A stretch of 64,000 nucleotides of DNA, taken from positions 6,149 through 70,148 of the forward strand of contig JANXAS010000011.1 in the NCBI GenBank assembly GCA_025062195.1, read 5' to 3'. Made by a program: the position numbers and the translations under genes. The notes under the pieces are model-generated. The model was given only the letters and a program-made list of their open reading frames with translations. It was not told the DNA's origin and did no database searches. The DNA is from Armatimonadota bacterium. Lineage in GTDB: Bacteria > Armatimonadota > Fervidibacteria > Fervidibacterales > Thermosaccharophagaceae. Numbering within the stretch: position 1 is the stretch's first letter; each line of letters starts with the position of its first letter. This document shows positions 2,117 to 53,497 of this stretch, one piece after another.

Positions 2117-2423
2117 AATTCAAATGCCGGTATGGAAGGCATGTTTTGAAAGTTTTCAAATGTGCCTGCTAAGGCTATTTGCTGCAAAGCTTACCGGGTG
2201 CTTGTTTAGGTTAAAGGCTCTTCAATGAGCCAAAAAGGCGGGCAGAGATTGAGAGGAATCTTTGAGGCATTGTGAGGATGGGGTTCTCGCCGAACAAAAT
2301 TCGAGCAAGCTGGCGATGGGAAGTAGACAGATAGGTAGCATTGTAGCCCACTTGCAAGTCCGCCATCTTCAAAACTCTTCTCCAACAACATTTTGAGCAA
2401 ATAGCACCTGTCAAATTGTAGCC

Positions 2424-3608
2424 TCAGCGTCCATGACAAACCGCACAAGTCTCCTCGCGCTTGTGACACTTGAAGCAAACTGACTTTGGATCAAAGCTCG
2501 CCACATCCTTGTGCTTGAGCGCAAACCCCTCAGGGTGTGGCAACGGAACACCGTGACAAGCATCGCAAGCATTCTTCCCGTGACAGCGCTCACAAATCTT
2601 TTGCTCTTCCTTTTTCACCTTAGCATGCGCTCTTCGGTAATCTTTTGGGTGCGGCATCGGCAAGCCATGACATGCATCACACCAAGATTGTGCATGACAG
2701 CGCATGCAAAGACTTGCGTTAATCTTTGCCTCGTTGTGCTTGCGCTCATAGCCCTTTGGATGGGGCATCCTGATGCCATGACATGAATCGCAGAAGGAAC
2801 TTGAATGGCACATAAGGCAATTCTGCCCAGCAAGGAAGAGCTTGCCGTGGCGCTTCATGAAATCGGGCTTGATGTGGGATGATGGTTTTCTGACGATGTG
2901 ACATGAATCACAAAACGAGCGCTCATGGCATTGCAAGCATTGAGTCTCTTTTTTGCGGGCGTGTTCACCATGCTTTGCGGCAAAGCCCTTCACATGGCTG
3001 GATGGTTTGCGCGGCTTGTGGCACAGGTCGCAAAATGCTTCACTATGGCAATCCAGGCACTGCTGTCTATCTTTTGTTTCCTTTGGATGGCGCTCAAGCC
3101 AATCTTGCCCGTGAGTATTCGGCAATGCTGTCTGCGGGCGAGCATGACATAACGAGCATTTCTTTGGCGCACGCTTATCATCGTGGCATTCCAAGCACAC
3201 ATCCATTGGCACAGCGCCATGCTTCGGATATGGCTTGCCCGGCTCTCGCTGCTTGATGTCTCTATGACAATCGCTGCAATGGTCACCCCTCTCAATATGC
3301 TTCATGTGCGAGAATGTAATTCGGTAGGCGCTTTCTCCGAGCGTGATGACGCTGTGGCATTCAAAGCATTCCAAATTAGCGATGTGGCGTAGGCGTTCGC
3401 TTAGAGAGTGTGAGGCTGAAATTCGCTTTGCATTGGTGTAGCGCGCCTCAGCCTCGTAGAGGCGCTTAACATCTCGCTTCACATAGTGCATATGAATCAT
3501 TAGCAGCGCCGATAACAAACTCACTATGACAATCGGAGAAAACATCAGCGCGAGTTTGAAGGACATTATTATAGCCCGCCTCAGCTTCACCGCTTTAACC
3601 CCCGACAC
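2424..3608 (-). CDS. Membrane-anchored 16-haem c-type cytochrome
   Basis: 394-aa ORF (GTG 3608; alternative Met 3566). One N-terminal TM helix. 16 CxxCH motifs account for all 32 Cys. Tandem doubled-CxxCH modules. Confidence 0.85.
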   Translation of the reverse strand: MSGVKAVKLRRAIIMSFKLALMFSPIVIVSLLSALLMIHMHYVKRDVKRLYEAEARYTNAKRISASHSLSERLRHIANLECFECHSVITLGESAYRITFSHMKHIERGDHCSDCHRDIKQREPGKPYPKHGAVPMDVCLECHDDKRAPKKCSLCHARPQTALPNTHGQDWLERHPKETKDRQQCLDCHSEAFCDLCHKPRKPSSHVKGFAAKHGEHARKKETQCLQCHERSFCDSCHIVRKPSSHIKPDFMKRHGKLFLAGQNCLMCHSSSFCDSCHGIRMPHPKGYERKHNEAKINASLCMRCHAQSWCDACHGLPMPHPKDYRRAHAKVKKEEQKICERCHGKNACDACHGVPLPHPEGFALKHKDVASFDPKSVCFKCHKREETCAVCHGR

Positions 3609-3678: not shown

Positions 3679-5301
3679 CTAACTGTTAGTGCTGCGGTGC
3701 TCATATTCAAGTGCGTGTCTTTCCTTTAACTCCCTCAGGCTAATCTTACCGGTTAGCCAAACCGTGCTCATCGGAAATACATCGGGACGAAGATGCGCAA
3801 AGTATATGTGGAAGCAAAGGAGGGCGAATGTTGCAAGCACAGCTTCATGGCTGTGTAACGCATGAGCGATTTCAACGAGCTGTGGCGATGTGCGTTCGGC
3901 GACAAGAGGCGCTTGCCAAAGCATTATGCCCGTTACGCCCATCATCAATATGCCCCAGCCTGCCGCCCAATAAAGGAACTTCTCAACGAAGTTGTATCGC
4001 CCCATCTTGGGTGGTTCACGGCGTATTCGTAGCAGGAAAAGTATGGAGTGATAGAAGTCAACGAAGTCCTTAAAGGTCGGAAGCATCTCTGTGCGCCTAT
4101 TGCCGAGAGCAAACTGGACGAGAAGATAGAGCAGGTGATAAACAACTGCAATGAGCATAACTATTCCTGCAACTCTATGTATGATGGCAGCGTTATCAAC
4201 CCCGCCGAGAAGCTCAAGAAGGAACAGCGAGATTGGTGACCAAAAGCCCTTTAGTGGCAAGCCAGTTAGCATTAGTGCCATAACGCTGCCCATGAAAAGA
4301 AAGTGTTGAAGGATTTGGTGGACATTCCAACGCTGCACATACCCTTTTAGCTCTTCGCCCTCCTTATGAATAGCTCTGGCGCACCAGAGCGCCCCCATCA
4401 CAACTGCGTCAAGCAACGTGTATGCGAACATTGAAATGAGCACGATGATGACGAACAGCTCAAAGAGCAAGTTGACCCAGTAGACTGCTGGACGCTCTGA
4501 GGGCGAAGCCAGCTTGTGCGTGAATGTGAGGGCAAATTTTTCGCCGCCGCCTTCGTGGCAGTTTGCGCACAACAAAGAGCGCTTTGAAGGGTGCATCATA
4601 GAGGCAGGGTCACTTGGCGAAAGTATGCTGTGGTAGCCATGACATGTGACGCAGTTGGCGCTGCGCTTGCTCCCAAGGTGCAGCTTCTTGCCGTGAAAGC
4701 TGCCCAAGTAAGTTGTGACAGTGTGTGTGTTAACTTTGTGCCGTAGCATCATTTCTTTGTTGGCGTGACACTTGGCGCATACCCATATGACATTGCTCGG
4801 ATATATTAACGAGCGTGGATCTTCATTGCTGAGTATATAATGGCTGCCATGACAATCGGTGCACATCGGTGGGTCATCACTGCCACTTAGTATGCTCATT
4901 GCATGCTCGCTTTTGCTGTATAGCTTGAAATGCTCCTTGTGGCATTCAATGCATGCAGCCAGTGCCGGCTGAGAGAGCCTATAAGCGCGCCTAACAAAAG
5001 GCTTAATCTCATTCGGTATATCTCTACGGTAGCCGCTCAAGGGGGAGTTCATTGTAATCTGGTGCGATTTTTTCATGGGACGCATGTTCGTGTGGCAATC
5101 GGTGCATTTGAATTTCCCATGCACTGAGGATGCAAACCTATCCGGGTTAACATAGAGGCTGCGTATCAATCCGTTTGGCAACCTTATGTGTAGCTTTTCG
5201 TTTGCGTGGCACGAAATGCAATGTTCCTGAGATGAGGCATATTCGTGCTGCAACCAAAGCAGAAAAACGATTATGCATGCTGCTATAGAGCGCCGAATCA
5301 T
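3679..5301 (-). CDS. Fusion protein: heptahaem cytochrome c domain plus integral-membrane cytochrome b (FdnI/PhsC/HydC-like); CbcL-like architecture
   Basis: 540 aa. Signal-peptide-like N-terminus. 7 CxxCH motifs in the first ~260 aa. The C-terminal ~270 aa has about 5 TM helices and conserved His blocks (RWNVHQILQH, HRVAG, HALHSHE). Confidence 0.8.
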   Translation of the reverse strand: MIRRSIAACIIVFLLWLQHEYASSQEHCISCHANEKLHIRLPNGLIRSLYVNPDRFASSVHGKFKCTDCHTNMRPMKKSHQITMNSPLSGYRRDIPNEIKPFVRRAYRLSQPALAACIECHKEHFKLYSKSEHAMSILSGSDDPPMCTDCHGSHYILSNEDPRSLIYPSNVIWVCAKCHANKEMMLRHKVNTHTVTTYLGSFHGKKLHLGSKRSANCVTCHGYHSILSPSDPASMMHPSKRSLLCANCHEGGGEKFALTFTHKLASPSERPAVYWVNLLFELFVIIVLISMFAYTLLDAVVMGALWCARAIHKEGEELKGYVQRWNVHQILQHFLFMGSVMALMLTGLPLKGFWSPISLFLLELLGGVDNAAIIHRVAGIVMLIAVVYHLLYLLVQFALGNRRTEMLPTFKDFVDFYHSILFLLRIRREPPKMGRYNFVEKFLYWAAGWGILMMGVTGIMLWQAPLVAERTSPQLVEIAHALHSHEAVLATFALLCFHIYFAHLRPDVFPMSTVWLTGKISLRELKERHALEYEHRSTNS

Positions 5302-19165: not shown

Positions 19166-19438
19166 AGGGTTTATACCGTCTCAAAAAATGGTGTGTAACC
19201 CGACTTGCTGTAGTAGGGCAACCGAACAAATGAGCAGCGGACAATGAATCCTTCTTGTGTGTAGTTTCTTTCGCCACAAAATTTGTTCAAAAATCTTTTG
19301 GATGGATGTGGTCTGCCTGGAAAAAGTCATAATGAAAACAACGATGAAGGTGGCTTAATAGCTGCCCTCGCCTTCAGGTGCACAACTTCTTAATCAATAG
19401 AGCAGCGTTAGCAATTTGCTGGCTTTCGGCTCGCAGCA

Positions 19439-20780
19439 ATGGCGCAAGTTATCCGTGGAGAGGTGAGCATGAGCTGGTCAATGGAGGCATATTCAAATAA
19501 GCATTCAAGGCGTCAGTTCATTAAATCATCGGCTGCCTCAGCAATTGTTTTGGGGGTGCTTAAAACAAGCGAGGCTGGTGTGAATATTGGTGGAAGTGAC
19601 ATCATACGAGTTGGCGTCATAGGTTGCGGTGGAAGAGGGATTGGCGCTGCAGTTGATGCTATGGCTGCGGACGAAGGTGTGCGTATAGTTGCACTTGCAG
19701 ACTTGTTTGAGAGCCGAGTGCGTGCTGGGATGAAGCTGCTAAAAGAGCGCTATCCTAAGCAAGCCATCGTTGATGATGCTCATTGCTTTGTCGGTTTGAT
19801 GCATGCAAGCATGTGATTGAATGCAGCGATGTTGTCCTAATTGCATGCGCTTCAAAGTTTCACCCGCTTCATGTGCGCGCTGCTGTTGAGTCCGGCAAAC
19901 ATGTCTTTGTTGAAAAGCCACCAGCGATAGACCCGGCAGGGATTAAAATGCTTGCCGAAGCTTGCGTTTAGCCAAGAGGAAAGGGCTTTGCATTGTCTCA
20001 GGTCTGCAAAGCCGCTATCACACTGGGTATCGTGAAGCTGTTCAGAGAGTGCATGATGGTGCTATTGGTGACATCGTGGCAATTGAGGAAAATTTTCTCC
20101 GCTCACCTTACGGAGTTGTGCACCGCCAACCATGGATGAATGAGTTGCAATTCCAGCTGATGAATTGGTATCATTTCAGCTGGCTGTCGGGTGATGATGT
20201 CGTTCAATCGCTTGTTCACAACCTTGATAGAGCGACTTGGGTGCTGAGGGAACAAGCGCCAATCAGGGCGCATGGCATGGGAGGGCGTTCTGCATGGTTT
20301 GAGGAAGCCGCCGGAAATGTGTTTGACCATCACGCAGTCGTTTATGAATACGCTAATGGGGTGCGAGTTTATGCATTCTGCAGGACACAGGTCGGGTGCC
20401 ACAATGAAGTCTCAAGCAAGATATTTGGAACGAAGGGCACTTGCTACTTGACGGATATGCGCATTGAGGGCGAGAAGAAATGGCGCTATGCCGGTCCGCC
20501 ATGCAATCCATACCTTGAAGAGCACAAAGCATTGTTTAGTGCCATACGCTCCGGCAAACCAATCGTCAACGATTACATGGTGCGTTCAACGCTTGTCTCC
20601 ATAATGGGGCAAATTGCATGTTACACTGGTCAGCGCATCACATGGGAGCAAATTGAGAAGTCGGACTTCTACTATCCGCCGAAGCCTGAGGACTGCAGCT
20701 TTGAGATGGAGCCGCCGGTGAAGCCGGGGCGAGATGGTCTTTACTCGGTGCCTATACCCGGTGTTACGAAACTTATTTGA
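19439..20780 (+). pseudogene. Gfo/Idh/MocA-family oxidoreductase (Tat signal) disrupted by two frameshifts
   Basis: Three consecutive ORFs (19439-19816, 19783-19971, 19962-20780) in frames 2, 1 and 0 read as one protein: SRRQFIKS leader, VGVIGCGGRG, HVFVEKP and a C-terminal domain. The shifts lie near 19795-19797 (T run) and 19965-19970. Confidence 0.75.
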
Positions 20781-24396: not shown

Positions 24397-24495
24397 CGCT
24401 CTTAGCTCAAAAATTTGTCGGTGCACACCTGTTCATACCCCTGGGCTTTATCCAACCGTTGATAAAGAAGCAAGTGAGCGCCAAATTCATTCAAC
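24397..24495 (+). repeat. Dispersed repeat family Rep-1, copy 4 (degenerate hairpin)
   Basis: CGCTCTTAGCTCAAAAATTTG...CTGGGCTTTATCCA...AGTGAGCGCCAAATTCATTC is colinear with copy 3 (53333-53462). Confidence 0.6.
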
Positions 24496-24567
24496 AACTT
24501 ATAGGGCAATGTTCACGCCAAACATGAAAAGGTGAAATTCTGTTGAGCCAAAAGGATATGCAGGGGC

Positions 24568-31191: not shown

Positions 31192-32136
31192 TTAGAGGCT
31201 TGAAAACGGTTCAGGTAAGGGGAACCGCATCTCCTCACGCACAAATTCAATTTCCTCAACTTGAGTCTCAGGATGGCTTAACTGAAGCAGTTTCTCAACC
31301 ACTCCTACGACTATTGACTCTGGTGTTGATGCGCTCGCAGTGATGCCTATGGTTGCCATGTCGCAAAGCTGAACTACATCAATGTCGTCTTTGTCCTCAA
31401 CAAGGAATGCTGTCACACCGCTCCCGCTCGCAACTTCGCATAACCTCTGCGCATTTGAGCTGTTATGAGAGCCAACGACGAGTATGCCATCACACACTTG
31501 AGACAACAGCTTGACCGCTGTTTGTCTATTCTGAGTTGCGTAACAAATATCCTCTGACGGTGGCGCTTCAAGGTGCGGGAAGCGCTTTTTTAGCGCCTCA
31601 ACTATAACCCTCGCAGCATCAACGCTCAAAGTCGTTTGAGTTAAGTAGACAACCTTATCCGGATTGGGAAGCTCTATACTTTCAACCTCGCTTGGGTCGC
31701 TTACAACCACAGTTTGTGTTGGCGCTTCTCCCATCGTCCCCTCAACTTCATCATGCCCCTTATGCCCTATGAGCACGATTGAATATCCCTTTGCTGCATA
31801 TCTTCTCGCCTCAGCGTGCACCTTGTTCACGAGCGGGCATGTGGCATCAATAACCTTTAACTTCTTTTGCTCTGCCTTCTCACGAACGAGCGGAGAAACA
31901 CCGTGAGCGTTGAAAACAATGAGAGCACCGTCTGGGACCTCGTCTATTGAACGAACGAAGGAGGCACCGCCCCTGCGCAACTCTTCAACAACATGCCTGT
32001 TGTGCACAATCTGCCGATGAACATAAATCGGGTGAGGGAATTGACTGAGCGCCATTTTAACCGTTTCAATTGCTCGCACAACACCTGCACAAAAGCCTCT
32101 CGGCTTAGCGAGAATAATGCGGCGAAGCTTTATCAT
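31192..32136 (-). CDS. ispH: 4-hydroxy-3-methylbut-2-enyl diphosphate reductase
   Basis: PRGFCAGVVRAI, VHNRHVV and ATCPLVNKVH blocks. The ORF is open to 32166; Met at 32136 gives the canonical N-terminus. Confidence 0.9.
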   Translation of the reverse strand: MIKLRRIILAKPRGFCAGVVRAIETVKMALSQFPHPIYVHRQIVHNRHVVEELRRGGASFVRSIDEVPDGALIVFNAHGVSPLVREKAEQKKLKVIDATCPLVNKVHAEARRYAAKGYSIVLIGHKGHDEVEGTMGEAPTQTVVVSDPSEVESIELPNPDKVVYLTQTTLSVDAARVIVEALKKRFPHLEAPPSEDICYATQNRQTAVKLLSQVCDGILVVGSHNSSNAQRLCEVASGSGVTAFLVEDKDDIDVVQLCDMATIGITASASTPESIVVGVVEKLLQLSHPETQVEEIEFVREEMRFPLPEPFSSL

Positions 32137-32319
32137 TCCCCGCATGGCTTTCCCATCACCCTGCACAGAAACAGAAAATGCCGCAAAACTGGCTTTTGAC
32201 TGGCTGCTCAGGAATTAGCCCTCAACTCAGGAGTTGGCATTCAACTTTAAAGTTGCCACAACTTGGGATGCGCCGCCAAAATGCGAATGACAATAATTTG
32301 GTAAGCGCTTTTTTCACAA

Positions 32320-32510
32320 CCATGCTATGGGCTTTAGCCCATAGCCACTGACGAAACCTCTAAGCGCCGTCTTTAGACAGCGATGAAAATTCTCGCCGAA
32401 TCAATTTGGCGAGAATTTGCTTCGTCATCAAACACTGGCTAAAGCCAGTGGCATGGATAGCTAAGCGCTGAATACGAACCAGCAAACTTTTGAGTAAAGA
32501 GCGCTCACAT
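32320..32510 (-). repeat. Dispersed repeat family Rep-1, copy 1 (most complete; 137-bp core with 38-nt terminal inverted repeats)
   Basis: Left arm 32320-32357 against the reverse complement of right arm 32419-32456 gives 26/38 identity. Each arm holds its own hairpin around GGCTTTAGCC (32324-32345 and 32433-32450). Central perfect 11-bp stem 32387-32397/32408-32418. Flanking box CAAACTTTTGAGTAAAGAG at 32483-32501. Confidence 0.75.
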
Positions 32511-32605
32511 TAATGTTTGGCTAAAAGCAGCTGCAATATGATGTCCATCTGCGCCGTGATGGCACTATAACTTGCTCCGTGCATTACTGCAAACCTTTTG
32601 GGGTA

Positions 32606-32614
32606 GTGCTACAA
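32606..32614 (+). promoter_or_regulatory. Candidate extended -10 promoter element (TGcTACAAT) upstream of the kinase-vWA module
   Basis: TGCTACAAT matches TGnTAnAAT. It would give a ~210-nt leader before ATG 32833. Pattern match only. Confidence 0.2.
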
Positions 32615-32832
32615 TCACGACTGATGCAGTTTTGAGGAGCACAGCGGAAGCAATGGCTTGCACAAATAAGACGCACGAGGACGGCGAGAAAAAATTATGT
32701 CTGCCTAACACTCTCTGATGGATACACTGGTTGCAAGGTGAGACTACTTGACAGATGAGGACATCACAGCTGGTGCGGGTAAAGCGAAATCTCTTTAGTC
32801 TTCTCCGAGCTTTGGAAGGTGATTAAACTGGC

Positions 32833-34107
32833 ATGCAGATGTGTCCCGAGTGCAGCGCTGATAACTTATCAGGGGCAGTCAATTGCTCAAGGTGCGGTGC
32901 ACAGCTTAAGGGTCTGCTTGGCTCGGGAACGCTGCTAAATAACCGCTATCGTGTGATTAAGGTTCTCGGATGCGGTGGCATGGGTGCGGTATATCTCGCT
33001 GAGGACTTAGCTTTATACGGGCGCAAGGTCGCCATCAAGGAAAACTTTGACACCTCGCAGGAAGGCAGGAAGCAATTTGAGATTGAAGCGAGGATTCTGG
33101 CAACACTATCACACCCCAACTTGCCCAAGGTGTTTGATTTCTTCACAGCGGGCGGAAAGCAATATGTTGCTATGGATTACATTGCCGGTGAAGATTTGCT
33201 CAACCATGTGGAGCAAAATGGACCACAAGGGCTTGAAGAGGCATTGAAATGGTTCTGGCAGGTGTGCGATGCTGTTGAGTATCTTCACCGTCAGTCACCG
33301 CCTGTAATACACCGAGATATCAAGCCGGGCAACATCAAGATACAGCCAGATGGCAGGGCTGTCCTTGTTGACTTTGGCATAGCTAAGTTCTACCGCCCGG
33401 GACAGCAAACTACTTCGGGTGCACAGGCAGTCACTCCCGGTTTCTCACCCATTGAGCAATATGGCAAGGGCATCACAGACCAACGCTCCGATGTTTACTC
33501 ACTCGCAGCAACGCTTTATTTTGCGTTAACTGGTGTGACTCCGCCAGAAGCAGTTGAGAGGTTAACGCACAACAGGCGACTCATTTCCATACGCAGCATC
33601 AATCCGGATGTTACAGAGGCAGTTGAGCGCGTGATTGAGAAAGCCCTCAAGTTGCACCCGAGTGAGCGCTACACAAGCGTGCGCGAATTTAGCGAAGCAC
33701 TTCGTATGGCGATAGCACAACCGGCGCAAAGCGCTTATCGGTGGGGCAGCTATCCACACAGTGGTCATAGGATGCCAACGAGCCAACGGGGCGCACAGAG
33801 AAGAGGTGGATGGCAAACACCACAACATCCAATTCCATATCCAACACAGTCTGCAGATCCATCCGGGTGCCTATTTCAACTCTTTGAAGTGCTCTTCTGG
33901 CTCATCATTGCGTGGAGCTTCGGATGCTGCGTAACCGCTTTCATTATCTACCTGCTTACCGCTCTGGGGTTGGTGTGGAGTTCTGGGACATTCATTGTGA
34001 CCGGAAATCCATTGCCGCTGCTATTCTTTGCCCTATGGGTCTTGATACTGTTGCGAATGACACGCATGATGAATGCGGCACGCAGAAGGCAAAGGAAGAG
34101 ACCTTAG
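32833..34107 (+). CDS. Ser/Thr protein kinase with N-terminal double zinc ribbon and C-terminal TM anchor
   Basis: 424 aa. CPECS...CSRCG zinc ribbon. Hanks motifs GCGGMGAVY, VAIK, HRDIKPGN, DFG and SPIEQ. Pro/Gln-rich linker followed by about 3 TM helices. SD GGAAGGTGA. Confidence 0.85.
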   Translation: MQMCPECSADNLSGAVNCSRCGAQLKGLLGSGTLLNNRYRVIKVLGCGGMGAVYLAEDLALYGRKVAIKENFDTSQEGRKQFEIEARILATLSHPNLPKVFDFFTAGGKQYVAMDYIAGEDLLNHVEQNGPQGLEEALKWFWQVCDAVEYLHRQSPPVIHRDIKPGNIKIQPDGRAVLVDFGIAKFYRPGQQTTSGAQAVTPGFSPIEQYGKGITDQRSDVYSLAATLYFALTGVTPPEAVERLTHNRRLISIRSINPDVTEAVERVIEKALKLHPSERYTSVREFSEALRMAIAQPAQSAYRWGSYPHSGHRMPTSQRGAQRRGGWQTPQHPIPYPTQSADPSGCLFQLFEVLFWLIIAWSFGCCVTAFIIYLLTALGLVWSSGTFIVTGNPLPLLFFALWVLILLRMTRMMNAARRRQRKRP

Positions 34108-45136: not shown

Positions 45137-45502
45137 TGGTGAGCATATACCAAAAACGAAAATGAAAGCGGCTTGAAAGTTGCCCTCACATTTGGCTATG
45201 TAACTTTTTGAACAGTTGTTGGGCAAGCGGTAATGTTTCGTTGGGGTGGTTGAAAGCCCGCCATAAAATCACCCCAAAAACAAGTGACGCAAAACGGTGC
45301 GAATGATAAGAATTGATAAAAATGGCGAATCCGAGCTCTCTTTGCTGCAAGCCTTGCTTGTTAGGTTTGTATTTAGCCATGAAGCATAAGCGGAGGCGCG
45401 TTAAGTTGGTGCAAAGTGCAATGTTATCATTTTGCTTGCATTTTGCGCTCGCTTCGCGCTCCGCACTCACTTTGATGGCACTGCGCTTTTCTTCGTGCCT
45501 TA

Positions 45503-45536
45503 CTAAGAACCAACAAACTTTTGAGTAAAGAGTGAC
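45503..45536 (-). repeat. Dispersed repeat family Rep-1, copy 2 (partial)
   Basis: AACCAACAAACTTTTGAGTAAAGAGTGA is 25/28 identical to 32476-32503. A diverged continuation may reach about 45420. A GCTTTAGCC box lies at 45553-45561. Confidence 0.55.
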
Positions 45537-45706
45537 TCCGAGAGTATAAGGAGCTTTAGCCAAGAACAAAAGTTTTCGTGTCTTTAAACTTTCATGCTGA
45601 AGCTGCCGCCCAAATGCGTCGTTTAAATGTGAGTGGTGCTTGCGGCTTAACAGCCGCCGCTATATTCGCTGCGTAAGTTCAGTTTGGAAAACGCTTACCC
45701 GAGGGA

Positions 45707-52665: not shown

Positions 52666-52792
52666 TTTGCGGTATTTTCGCCGCTCAGAAATGGTGTCAC
52701 TTTTGCGAACACTGCTGAATGATGCGGCGCAATATGCATCTTGCCCGAGATTCTGTTGGCTTGAGGGCATAAGCATTTTTTAACGCCACTAT

Positions 52793-52851
52793 GACAGAAA
52801 CTGCCACCCTGTAGCGTTGCTCCTTGCAGGCAACGGTCGTTTGTAACTATC
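52793..52851 (-). repeat. Dispersed repeat family Rep-2, copy d
   Basis: GACAGAAACTGCCACCCTGTAGCG...CGTTGC/GCAACG hairpin...GTCGTTTGTAACTATC. Colinear with the reverse complement of copy b. Lies 128 nt after the waaA stop. Confidence 0.65.
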
Positions 52852-53332
52852 AAAATTGCCACATGTCCTTCATGGGCGAGGTGAAACCTAACAGCCATCG
52901 GATTTTTAGGGCATGACAGTAGCTCTGCCCTCCGAGGTTATACAATTCCAAGAAATTAGTGTGGCGTGGGCATAACGCACATGAATGCTTTGTAGGATGC
53001 TTTCGCTGTTGTTTTGCGCTGTCCCTTGCCTACCGAAGTGAACTACCGTCGGCTGAAGCTAATAGTTCACTGCGCCCATTATTTATGTGGGTGGGATTCA
53101 AAGACCATCAGGGATAGACTCTGACGGGTAGGTTAGGGGTATACCATTGGCACTGGTAAGGAATTTATAGTATCCAACCTAACTTATTGCAGAACAAACA
53201 AACGGCTGGGCAACATACCATCCGATTCTTAGGCATTTTTAAGCACAATGCTTCAACTGCTTTTTAGCGTTGCCGAACTTTTTGGACTGAAAATGCTTGC
53301 CAAAATGAACGAACACAAGCATTGAAAAGCCA

Positions 53333-53462
53333 ACTTTGCTCAAAAAAACTTGTTTTCGCTTTTCACACATGCCGCTGGCTTTAGCCAGCGGTTAGTGACG
53401 AATTAGTGAGCGCAGAATTCATTCGGCGAAAAATTTCTGTCGGGGATAAATCCTGACGCTAC
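53333..53462 (+). repeat. Dispersed repeat family Rep-1, copy 3
   Basis: ACTTTGCTCAAAAAAACTTG...CATGCCGCTGGCTTTAGCCAGCGGTTAGTGACGAA...AGTGAGCGCAGAATTCATTCGGCGAAAAATTTC. 8-bp hairpin 53372-53379/53384-53391. Colinear with the reverse complement of copy 1. Confidence 0.7.
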
Positions 53463-53497
53463 ATAATTTGTATGCTGCCTTGGTCTCTGAAATAGTG

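Follow-up and report, generated by a model that had tools for sequence, protein, structure and literature searches.

A palindromic intergenic sequence in Fervidibacteria is probably a decayed copy of a non-coding miniature transposable element with ISH4-like ends

What kind of sequence is the composite palindrome at positions 32320-32510 of a 64,000-nt stretch of contig JANXAS010000011.1 (assembly GCA_025062195.1; hereafter the window), in the spacer between ispH and a Ser/Thr kinase gene of an Armatimonadota bacterium of the Fervidibacteria? The initial annotation, made from the sequence alone, proposed a non-autonomous element resembling a miniature inverted-repeat transposable element (MITE), a structure like the repetitive extragenic palindromic (REP) sequences, or a structured RNA family. 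We conclude, with a probability of roughly 0.8, that the sequence is a decayed copy of a ≈210-bp non-coding MITE of hot-spring Armatimonadota (Fervidibacteria). The family to which it belongs has terminal inverted repeats (TIRs) similar to those of ISH4-clade elements, is present in many copies, is flanked by short target-site duplications, and is missing from the corresponding sites in relatives. The first of the proposed readings is borne out by these features.

Alignment of full copies from other genomes yielded a 210-bp consensus (CGCTCTTTACTTCAAATGTTGTTGGTGACCATTTTTCACAACCATGCTATGGGCTTTAGCCCATAGTCGCTGACGAATTTTTGAGCGCCGTCTTTAGACGGCGGGAATTTTTTCGCCGAATGAATTCGGCGCTCATTAGTTCGTCATCAACCACTGGCTAAAGCCAGTGGCATGGATACAAAGCACCAACAAACTTTGAAGTAAAGAGCG) bounded by TIRs of 26-28 bp, with the sequence CGCTCTTTACTnCAAAkkTTGTTGGTG derived from 82 instances. 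Between the TIRs, the interior is near-palindromic, consisting of a hairpin module A, a central palindrome and a hairpin module B. The window copy occupies 32298-32503 on the forward strand and spans positions 22-210 of the 210-position consensus (nhmmer, E=4.3e-49). Full copies from other genomes match it at 72-89% identity, and the slightly longer stretch 32298-32514 aligns to many loci of other genomes in the same range, compared to at most ≈70% for housekeeping DNA in those same comparisons. In the alignment, the host sequence shared with relatives between ispH and the kinase gene stops at about 32294, and the element starts at consensus position 22. The left TIR of the window copy thus lacks its outermost ≈21 nt.

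Module A (32321-32355, forward strand), recognized by an exact pattern match and by its stem statistics, reads CATGC-TATG-GGCTTTAGCC-CATA-...TGACGAA and contains the hairpin GCTATGGGC-TTTA-GCCCATAGC, with its first base at 32324. The central palindrome (32387-32418, no strand), seen in the sequence, the alignments and the predicted fold, is a variant of the family core CGCCGAATgAATTCGGCG, in which AAATTCTCGCC (32387-32397) pairs with GGCGAGAATTT (32408-32418) to make an 11-bp stem. Module B (32421-32455, reverse strand; exact pattern match) is the inverted partner of module A, with the stem CCACTGGC/GCCAGTGG and the hairpin CACTGGC-TAAA-GCCAGTG. The right TIR, ACCAGCAAACTTTTGAGTAAAGAGCG (32478-32503, reverse strand), matches the TIR profile with E=2.3e-6 and corresponds to the terminal block in all full copies; it is the true end of the element. 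Both arm hairpins and the perfect central stem had been described correctly in the initial annotation, and a hand count reproduced its figure of 26/38 identities between 32320-32357 and the reverse complement of 32419-32456. It had, however, taken these 38-nt arms for the terminal repeats; they are the internal hairpin modules, and what it called a flank box is the real terminus.

The 35-nt unit that makes up each module, described by the pattern CATGCNNNNGGCTTTAGCCNNNNNNNNNTGACGAA (CATGC-N4-GGCTTTAGCC-N9-TGACGAA), has three exact matches in the window, at 32321-32355 (+), 32421-32455 (-) and 53368-53402 (+), compared to none in 100 shuffles. The flank box AACTTTTGAGTAAAGAG occurs exactly at 32485 and 45516, where 0.2 occurrences would be expected. 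The bare 10-mer GGCTTTAGCC is only weakly enriched in the window when up to one mismatch is allowed (nine occurrences versus 4.3 expected).

A lack of further copies would have spoken against the initial annotation, but when one genome per species was scanned, the 35-nt unit turned up in at least 86 loci, nearly all from Armatimonadota or Candidatus Fervidibacter. These include the metagenome-assembled genomes (MAGs) SKYB17, SKYB58, SKYB71, SKW126 and BF2.bins.111, all Armatimonadota of the Fervidibacter group, as well as Candidatus Fervidibacter sinensis, F. sacchari PD1 and Thermosaccharophagus gerlachensis. Within the 575 kb of retrieved sequence, nhmmer identified 180 distinct copies; since the loci (numbered here with the prefix L) were retrieved by exact match to the internal unit, this sample is biased towards conserved interiors. 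The elements range in size from 174 to 576 bp and are non-coding. The same TIR surrounds at least four different interiors, and some elements contain tandem multimers of the internal module within a single TIR pair, for example L067 (576 bp) and L012. We found no description of this repeat family in the available literature on Fervidibacter repeats and transposons, and searches with ISH4 end sequences likewise returned nothing relevant. The family is new, while its kind, selfish DNA of the MITE type, is ordinary and well known. One locus, L055 (JAJZIM010000077.1), is labeled as a Bacillota MAG, and contains an exact Fervidibacter-type 35-nt unit together with open reading frames (ORFs) homologous to window genes from the era region. 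The contig probably belongs to Fervidibacteria and was mis-binned, so that the unit would not have crossed phyla.

Both signs of transposition named in the initial annotation, target-site duplications and empty sites in relatives, were found. Among 23 TIR pairs no more than 700 nt apart, ten are flanked by perfect (8/8) 8-bp duplications and four by 7/8 duplications, whereas an offset control gave none with 6/8 or better. Examples of the duplicated sequences are TTGGTAAA, TGAAAATG, AACGAAAA and GAAATCTT. Perfect 8-bp duplications flank elements with unrelated interiors as well, and multimers of 389-576 nt also have duplications. For the empty sites, we compared the window to relatives with conserved gene order: GCA_032161065.1 and GCA_964463645.1, with 80-85% protein identity, and a JGI contig with 73%. 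At all four sites examined, the relatives have short spacers. The ispH/kinase spacer, which carries the 32298-32503 copy, is 195 nt long in the relatives and ≈670 nt in the window. The corresponding lengths are 45 nt (in one relative) and 401 nt for the spacer between a GH gene and a 315-aa gene (24397-24497 copy), 41-43 nt and 570 nt for pcm/lpxC (45336-45534 element), and 5-103 nt and 832 nt for kdtA/era (53325-53482 copy). No TIR or element match was found in 65 kb of syntenic sequence from the relatives. The near-identical genome GCA_026418135.1 shares the window insertions, and an independent assembly of the window organism breaks within the element, as would be expected of a repeat. The element also seems to occupy one and the same site in L010 (5283-5487, SKYB17) and L046 (7193-7396, SKYB58), where the flanks on either side are similar. 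These are two different species-level MAGs, so that some insertions may predate speciation and have persisted.

In the proposed mechanism, a DDE transposase encoded elsewhere would bind both TIRs, excise or copy the element, and make a staggered 8-bp cut at the insertion site; the 8-bp duplication would arise when this cut is repaired. The interior is then cargo, the same TIRs mobilizing several unrelated interiors as well as tandem multimers of this one.

Which transposase might this be? The ISH4 subgroup of the IS1595 family has CGCTCTT ends and 8-bp duplications, and we checked this on pNRC100, where the archaeal ISH4 is 1004 bp long, with TIRs CGCTCTTGTGGCGGAGATTGTTGGTGAGT / CGCTCTTGGGTAGAGGATTGTTGGTCAGT and the 8-bp duplication TAGATAGT. 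ISH4 and the MITE have in common the outer heptamer CGCTCTT, a TIR length of ≈27-29 bp and the length of the target-site duplication. They also share an inner TTGTTGGTG box 10-11 nt inward, which we had not anticipated, and which lies one base further in for the MITE. In contrast, the middle of the TIR, TACTnCAAAkk, is specific to the MITE family, the hairpin-rich palindromic interior is unrelated to ISH4, and the host is a thermophilic bacterium (Armatimonadota, Fervidibacteria) and not a haloarchaeon; nor was a cognate transposase gene found in the ≈650 kb examined. The match in TIR architecture and duplication length points to a DDE transposase of the ISH4 clade, acting in trans, as the most likely mobilizer.

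A search with an ISH4 transposase against representative proteins returned full-length relatives at 29-41% identity, and we read the element ends at three of these loci. The TIR of L106, CGCTCTTATTGTTGAATGTTGTTGCTGG, has the form CGCTCTT-N11-TTGTTGCTG and is identical to the MITE TIR in spacing and at 19 of 26 positions. That of L105 has the form GGCTCTT-N11-TTGTTGGTG, again with exactly the spacing of the MITE. L107 shares only CGCTCTT with the MITE. L105 and L106 are metagenome contigs that we take to be bacterial, although only the protein cluster of L105 bears a bacterial name (Poribacteria). In both, the right TIR encodes the C-terminus of the transposase, ending in TNILGK (L105) or SNNIQQ (L106) before the stop codon. 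Read in the same frame, the MITE TIR gives TNNI or TNKL followed by a stop, and the end of the MITE looks like a coding remnant of a transposase. Of the other possible parents, further IS1595 subgroups (ISEc69, IS1595, ISAcra1, ISCsp2) were rejected, since their ends are unrelated and share neither block. Elements of the ISL3 family also generate 8-bp duplications, and a Priestia ISL3 element has a GGCTCTTT terminus (TIR GGCTCTTTCTCACTTTTGGTGAAGGT); only the terminal GCTCTTT block is in common, with no TTGTTGGTG box at the corresponding inner spacing, and a Rhodococcus ISL3 element has nothing in common with the MITE TIR. ISL3 was therefore rejected as well.

There is precedent for such derivatives, in that MITEHsal1 and MITEHsal12 of Halobacterium salinarum are listed under class ISH4 (PMC7002104). 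These are likewise non-coding.

Several observations count against the interpretation as a MITE mobilized by an ISH4-like transposase. No autonomous element, and no ORF resembling those of ISH4, IS1595 or ISL3, was found by tblastn (including the ISH4 transposase as query) in the ≈650 kb of window and retrieved loci; TIR pairs 0.8-3.5 kb apart enclose no transposase; and none of the best 150 representative proteins has the C-terminus predicted from the MITE TIR. The alpha-type copies in the window, i.e., those with the interior described above, have neither an intact TIR pair nor a duplication, and are assigned to the MITE because they are homologous to complete copies elsewhere. The interior is better conserved than the TIRs and about twice as abundant, which a pure cargo view does not predict. 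Finally, F. sacchari, F. sinensis and Thermosaccharophagus show internal modules only, with degenerate TIR traces at most. The excess of modules over TIRs is partly a matter of ascertainment, because the loci were retrieved by exact match to the module.

Other searches for a transposase were negative as well. The distant TIR pairs belong to separate MITEs with ordinary genes lying between them, which encode an enolase-superfamily protein, AccA and an FG-GAP-like protein, and an all-against-all comparison of ORFs revealed none present in multiple copies. The ISL3-like and IS1595-like probes do recover annotated ISL3 and IS1595 genes in plasmids, which shows that the probes work. Scanning with the TIR gave no matches in viral contigs and three loci in JGI metagenomes, all of them MITEs; a BLAST search of plasmids with the TIR gave only chance matches. 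A protein search with ISH4 returned only near-identical haloarchaeal proteins. In one record (P0251), an ISH4 transposase 93% identical to a Halobacterium protein sits on a 708-kb contig labeled Melioribacteraceae, a sign of contamination or mis-binning, or else of transfer in the very recent past.

The abundance of the interior and the modules that lack clear TIRs would also fit a different mode of transposition, in which the CATGC-hairpin units are themselves REPs, and the inverted doublet at 32321-32455 is a REPIN that was moved as single-stranded DNA by a REP-associated tyrosine transposase (RAYT) of the HUH/Y1 type, the TIR-bounded form being secondary. The elements do share much with the RAYT-associated REP, BIME (bacterial interspersed mosaic element) and REPIN sequences of proteobacteria: short, GC-rich imperfect palindromes, inverted doublets, alternating mosaic clusters, intergenic location, high copy number and compensatory stems. 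Modules A and B, as ≈35-nt units, are 20-40-nt imperfect palindromes in an inverted doublet, as REPs and REPINs are; clusters of alternating orientation include L012, with five units in 400 nt, and L067, with a triple module; stem pairing is kept across subfamilies; and the CATGC-bounded doublets in F. sacchari, F. sinensis and Thermosaccharophagus have no duplication. However, REPs have no TIRs beyond the palindrome and produce no target-site duplication, whereas complete copies of the present element bear the hallmarks of DDE transposition, 26-bp TIRs and 8-bp duplications, which are not products of HUH/Y1 transposition. Most doublets lie within TIR-bounded elements, and by eye, degenerate TIR traces beside some solo units suggest that these are decayed complete elements. 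The conserved GTAG-type head of REPs is missing, and no RAYT-like ORF (E<1) was detected by tblastn in ≈575 kb, which is a weak test, with an E. coli RAYT sequence as the query and a partial sample. We consider transposition as REPINs improbable.

Other small hairpin repeats frequently neighbor the solo modules of F. sacchari, F. sinensis and Thermosaccharophagus. A second small palindromic repeat, with a GTAGGG head (e.g., GTAGGGCAGGGCTTCCACGCCCTGCC), occurs both free and as cargo within the same TIRs (L092 470-560, L065 3850-4150, L013 3732-3905, L020 4421-4520, L038 6211-6392). This second repeat resembles classical REPs more closely, and would be a stronger candidate for having a RAYT partner.

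Could the hairpins instead reflect selection on the fold of a structured non-coding or cis-regulatory RNA? The initial annotation had noted that differences between the arm hairpins, and a third hairpin at 53372-53391 (CCGCTGGC-TTTA-GCCAGCGG, found as described), were compensatory. This compensation is real: among 158 distinct units, the five variable stem pairs are paired in 95% of cases, compared to 77% when the partners are shuffled, and three stem positions show two types of Watson-Crick pair. The sequence GGC-TTTA-GCC is invariant, and the stem outside it differs in a compensatory manner by subfamily: CCACT/AGTGG (51 copies), CTATG/CATAG (26), CTACG/CGTAG (13) and CTGTG/CACAG (2). The compensation thus mostly reflects three to four subfamilies, i.e., a handful of independent events. 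It could be explained by selection for a DNA or RNA hairpin, or by templated repair within quasi-palindromes, which can mimic compensation. Folding is far more stable than for shuffled sequences (-114 kcal/mol and z=-14.7 for the consensus, z=-5.6 for the window copy), but this is expected of any palindromic DNA repeat. The further step to an RNA did not hold up, in that the RNAalifold covariation term was ≈0 for 16 full copies, and Rfam gave no window match at gathering thresholds (best sub-threshold match RF02450, at chance level, with 24.4 bits versus a cutoff of 60, E=0.048). The evidence from covariation for an RNA is weak. Since the copies also occur in either orientation and alike in all three gene contexts, and have TIRs, duplications and empty sites, an RNA family is a very unlikely explanation.

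The location of the copies bears on a related possibility, that the repeats are host regulatory DNA at gene ends, acting in the termination or attenuation of transcription or as operators to which a global regulator of the DNA-binding type attaches. Strong hairpins, the invariant core GGCTTTAGCC and intergenic copies would all suit such a function. Of the 180 copies, 164 lie outside long ORFs, although 79% of the bases are inside long ORFs. The initial annotation had all window copies as intergenic, and this holds, the overlapping ORFs having no Pfam match. The genes around the window copies are ordinary chromosomal ones (ispH, a Ser/Thr kinase gene, kdtA, era, pcm and lpxC). However, convergent, divergent and tandem contexts are used by the 180 copies roughly in proportion, with no bias, and the main copy lies between divergent genes. 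A search of 32100-32900 around the main copy revealed no terminator-like site (a hairpin with a T-run behind it), and a terminator reading was rejected; in relatives, the element is wholly missing from the orthologous sites. Interpreting TGGCATGG...GC as a sigma-54 promoter was likewise rejected, since by eye the spacing is wrong. The locations are more in keeping with selfish insertions that are tolerated than with terminators or operators, and a regulatory role at gene ends seems highly improbable.

The same spacer does contain a candidate regulatory site, distinct from the element. At 32242-32255, a perfectly palindromic 14-nt sequence, CAACTTTAAAGTTG, extends into a promoter-like site of the form TTGCCA-18-CAAAAT (32253-32282). 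Relatives share the two, which, judging from the sequence, are a putative operator and promoter. The MITE lies just downstream, and so may be part of the 5' leader of the kinase gene.

A reading between cargo and REP is that the CATGC-GGCTTTAGCC module and the CGCCGAATgAATTCGGCG core form a REP-like unit that is maintained in its own right and that either moves by itself or benefits the host, e.g., as a thermostable transcript-end or DNA-structure element. What keeps this reading under consideration is that the module is near base-for-base conserved across Fervidibacteria genera, without usable TIRs in some of them, and that ISH4-like MITEs repeatedly acquired it and amplified it in tandem; the IspH proteins of these genera are only 57% identical (window versus F. 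sacchari). We regard it as unlikely. Such pick-up of a module by ISH4-like MITEs would amount to a mosaic, cargo-swapping repeat system.

Small non-coding TIR elements with long hairpins, scattered between genes and mobilized in trans, are well known from other bacteria, and include Correia (CREE) in Neisseria, RUP in Streptococcus, ERIC/IRU in enterobacteria and Nezha in cyanobacteria. Their TIRs, duplication lengths (TA for Correia and RUP) and parent insertion sequence families differ from those of the present MITE, and no sequence similarity between the present family and other bacterial palindromic MITEs was detected in Rfam.

Besides the main copy, the window contains two further alpha-type copies, both of which had been noted as colinear copies, near 53333 and 24397, and were recovered by a profile of full-length copies. 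The first (53325-53482, reverse strand) is decayed; its center and module B are kept, while module A is degenerate, as is the TIR (≈53325-53366). The profile match covers 53344-53482 (consensus 62-198, E=2.4e-21), with the exact 35-nt unit at 53368-53402; the start at 53325 was set by eye. The second (24397-24497, reverse strand; consensus 113-210, E=1e-10) is a half copy comprising a TIR (24397-24424; TIR profile E=0.012), a degenerate module B and the center. All three alpha copies are old: 32298-32503 lacks the outer left TIR and is probably immobile, 53325-53482 lacks both usable ends, and 24397-24497 is only half an element. With one surviving TIR each, they are most plausibly fossils that can no longer move and that have inflated intergenic spacers.

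A second MITE (45336-45534, forward strand) is complete and keeps both TIRs, which are the same as those of the alpha type, around an unrelated "beta" interior homologous by BLAST to the beta elements L002 (4161-4367, with the BLAST match at 4179-4365) and L005 (1178-1519). Its TIR profile match is at 45508-45533 (E=2.7e-6), and it is flanked by an 8-bp duplication, AATCCGAG (45328-45335) / ACTCCGAG (45535-45542), with 7/8 identity. The recurrence of the flank box at 45503-45536 had been counted among the copies of the main element; the box is indeed exact at 45516, but it is the end of the beta element, with which the main copy has only the TIR in common. A candidate left TIR at 45203-45232 was excluded, as the beta element begins at 45336. 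A 127-aa ORF (45186-45569, reverse strand) that overlaps the element has no Pfam match and is therefore probably spurious. Two looser boxes reported earlier were not supported by the TIR profile, which gave E=1.8 at 19270-19287 for the box at 19278-19295 and no match for that at 45213-45228.

A third TIR-bounded element, of 234 bp (2173-2406, forward strand), has diverged TIRs (GGCTATTTGCTGCAAAG... / ...TTTTGAGCAAATAGCA), with a TIR profile match of E=0.0015 at 2381-2405 and a weak match at 2174-2189. Its flanks, CCTGCTAA / CCTGTCAA, are 6/8 identical, and its interior holds a core-like motif, CGCCGAAC..AATTCG. No copy of this element was found among the retrieved loci. Additional spacer DNA at 32504-32815 (≈310 nt) and 52666-53324 (≈660 nt) is missing from syntenic relatives and has no match to the MITE or TIR profiles; decayed hairpins within the latter segment, among them GGGCGAGGTGAAACCTAAC and AGGGCATGACAGTAGCTCTGCCCTCCGA, resemble other repeat modules in related genomes.

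Two observations on window genes are unrelated to the repeats. A Gfo/Idh/MocA oxidoreductase with a twin-arginine translocation (TAT) signal is split into ORFs of 125 aa (19439-19816) and 272 aa (19962-20780), while a relative has a single 439-aa gene (L094, start 20378); the split points to a frameshift or pseudogene, unless the assembly is in error here. A multihaem cytochrome c gene (Cytochrome_C7, NapC/NirT; 2424-3608, reverse strand) has internal direct repeats of 111-120 nt (2530-2930), probably repeated haem-binding units.

The repeat superfamily can now be given boundaries, which matters for Fervidibacteria MAGs, where it breaks assemblies and creates spurious ORFs. The elements account for the length of intergenic DNA in the window lineage, two to three times that of syntenic relatives, and copies in promoter-proximal spacers, such as that between ispH and the Ser/Thr kinase gene, could alter expression. 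By the architecture of their TIRs, these MITEs from a lineage of thermophilic bacteria are tied to the ISH4 clade of IS1595, and one TIR pair is seen to carry several interchangeable, hairpin-rich interiors. The family represents a lineage-specific expansion in Fervidibacteria that is in no way surprising in kind.

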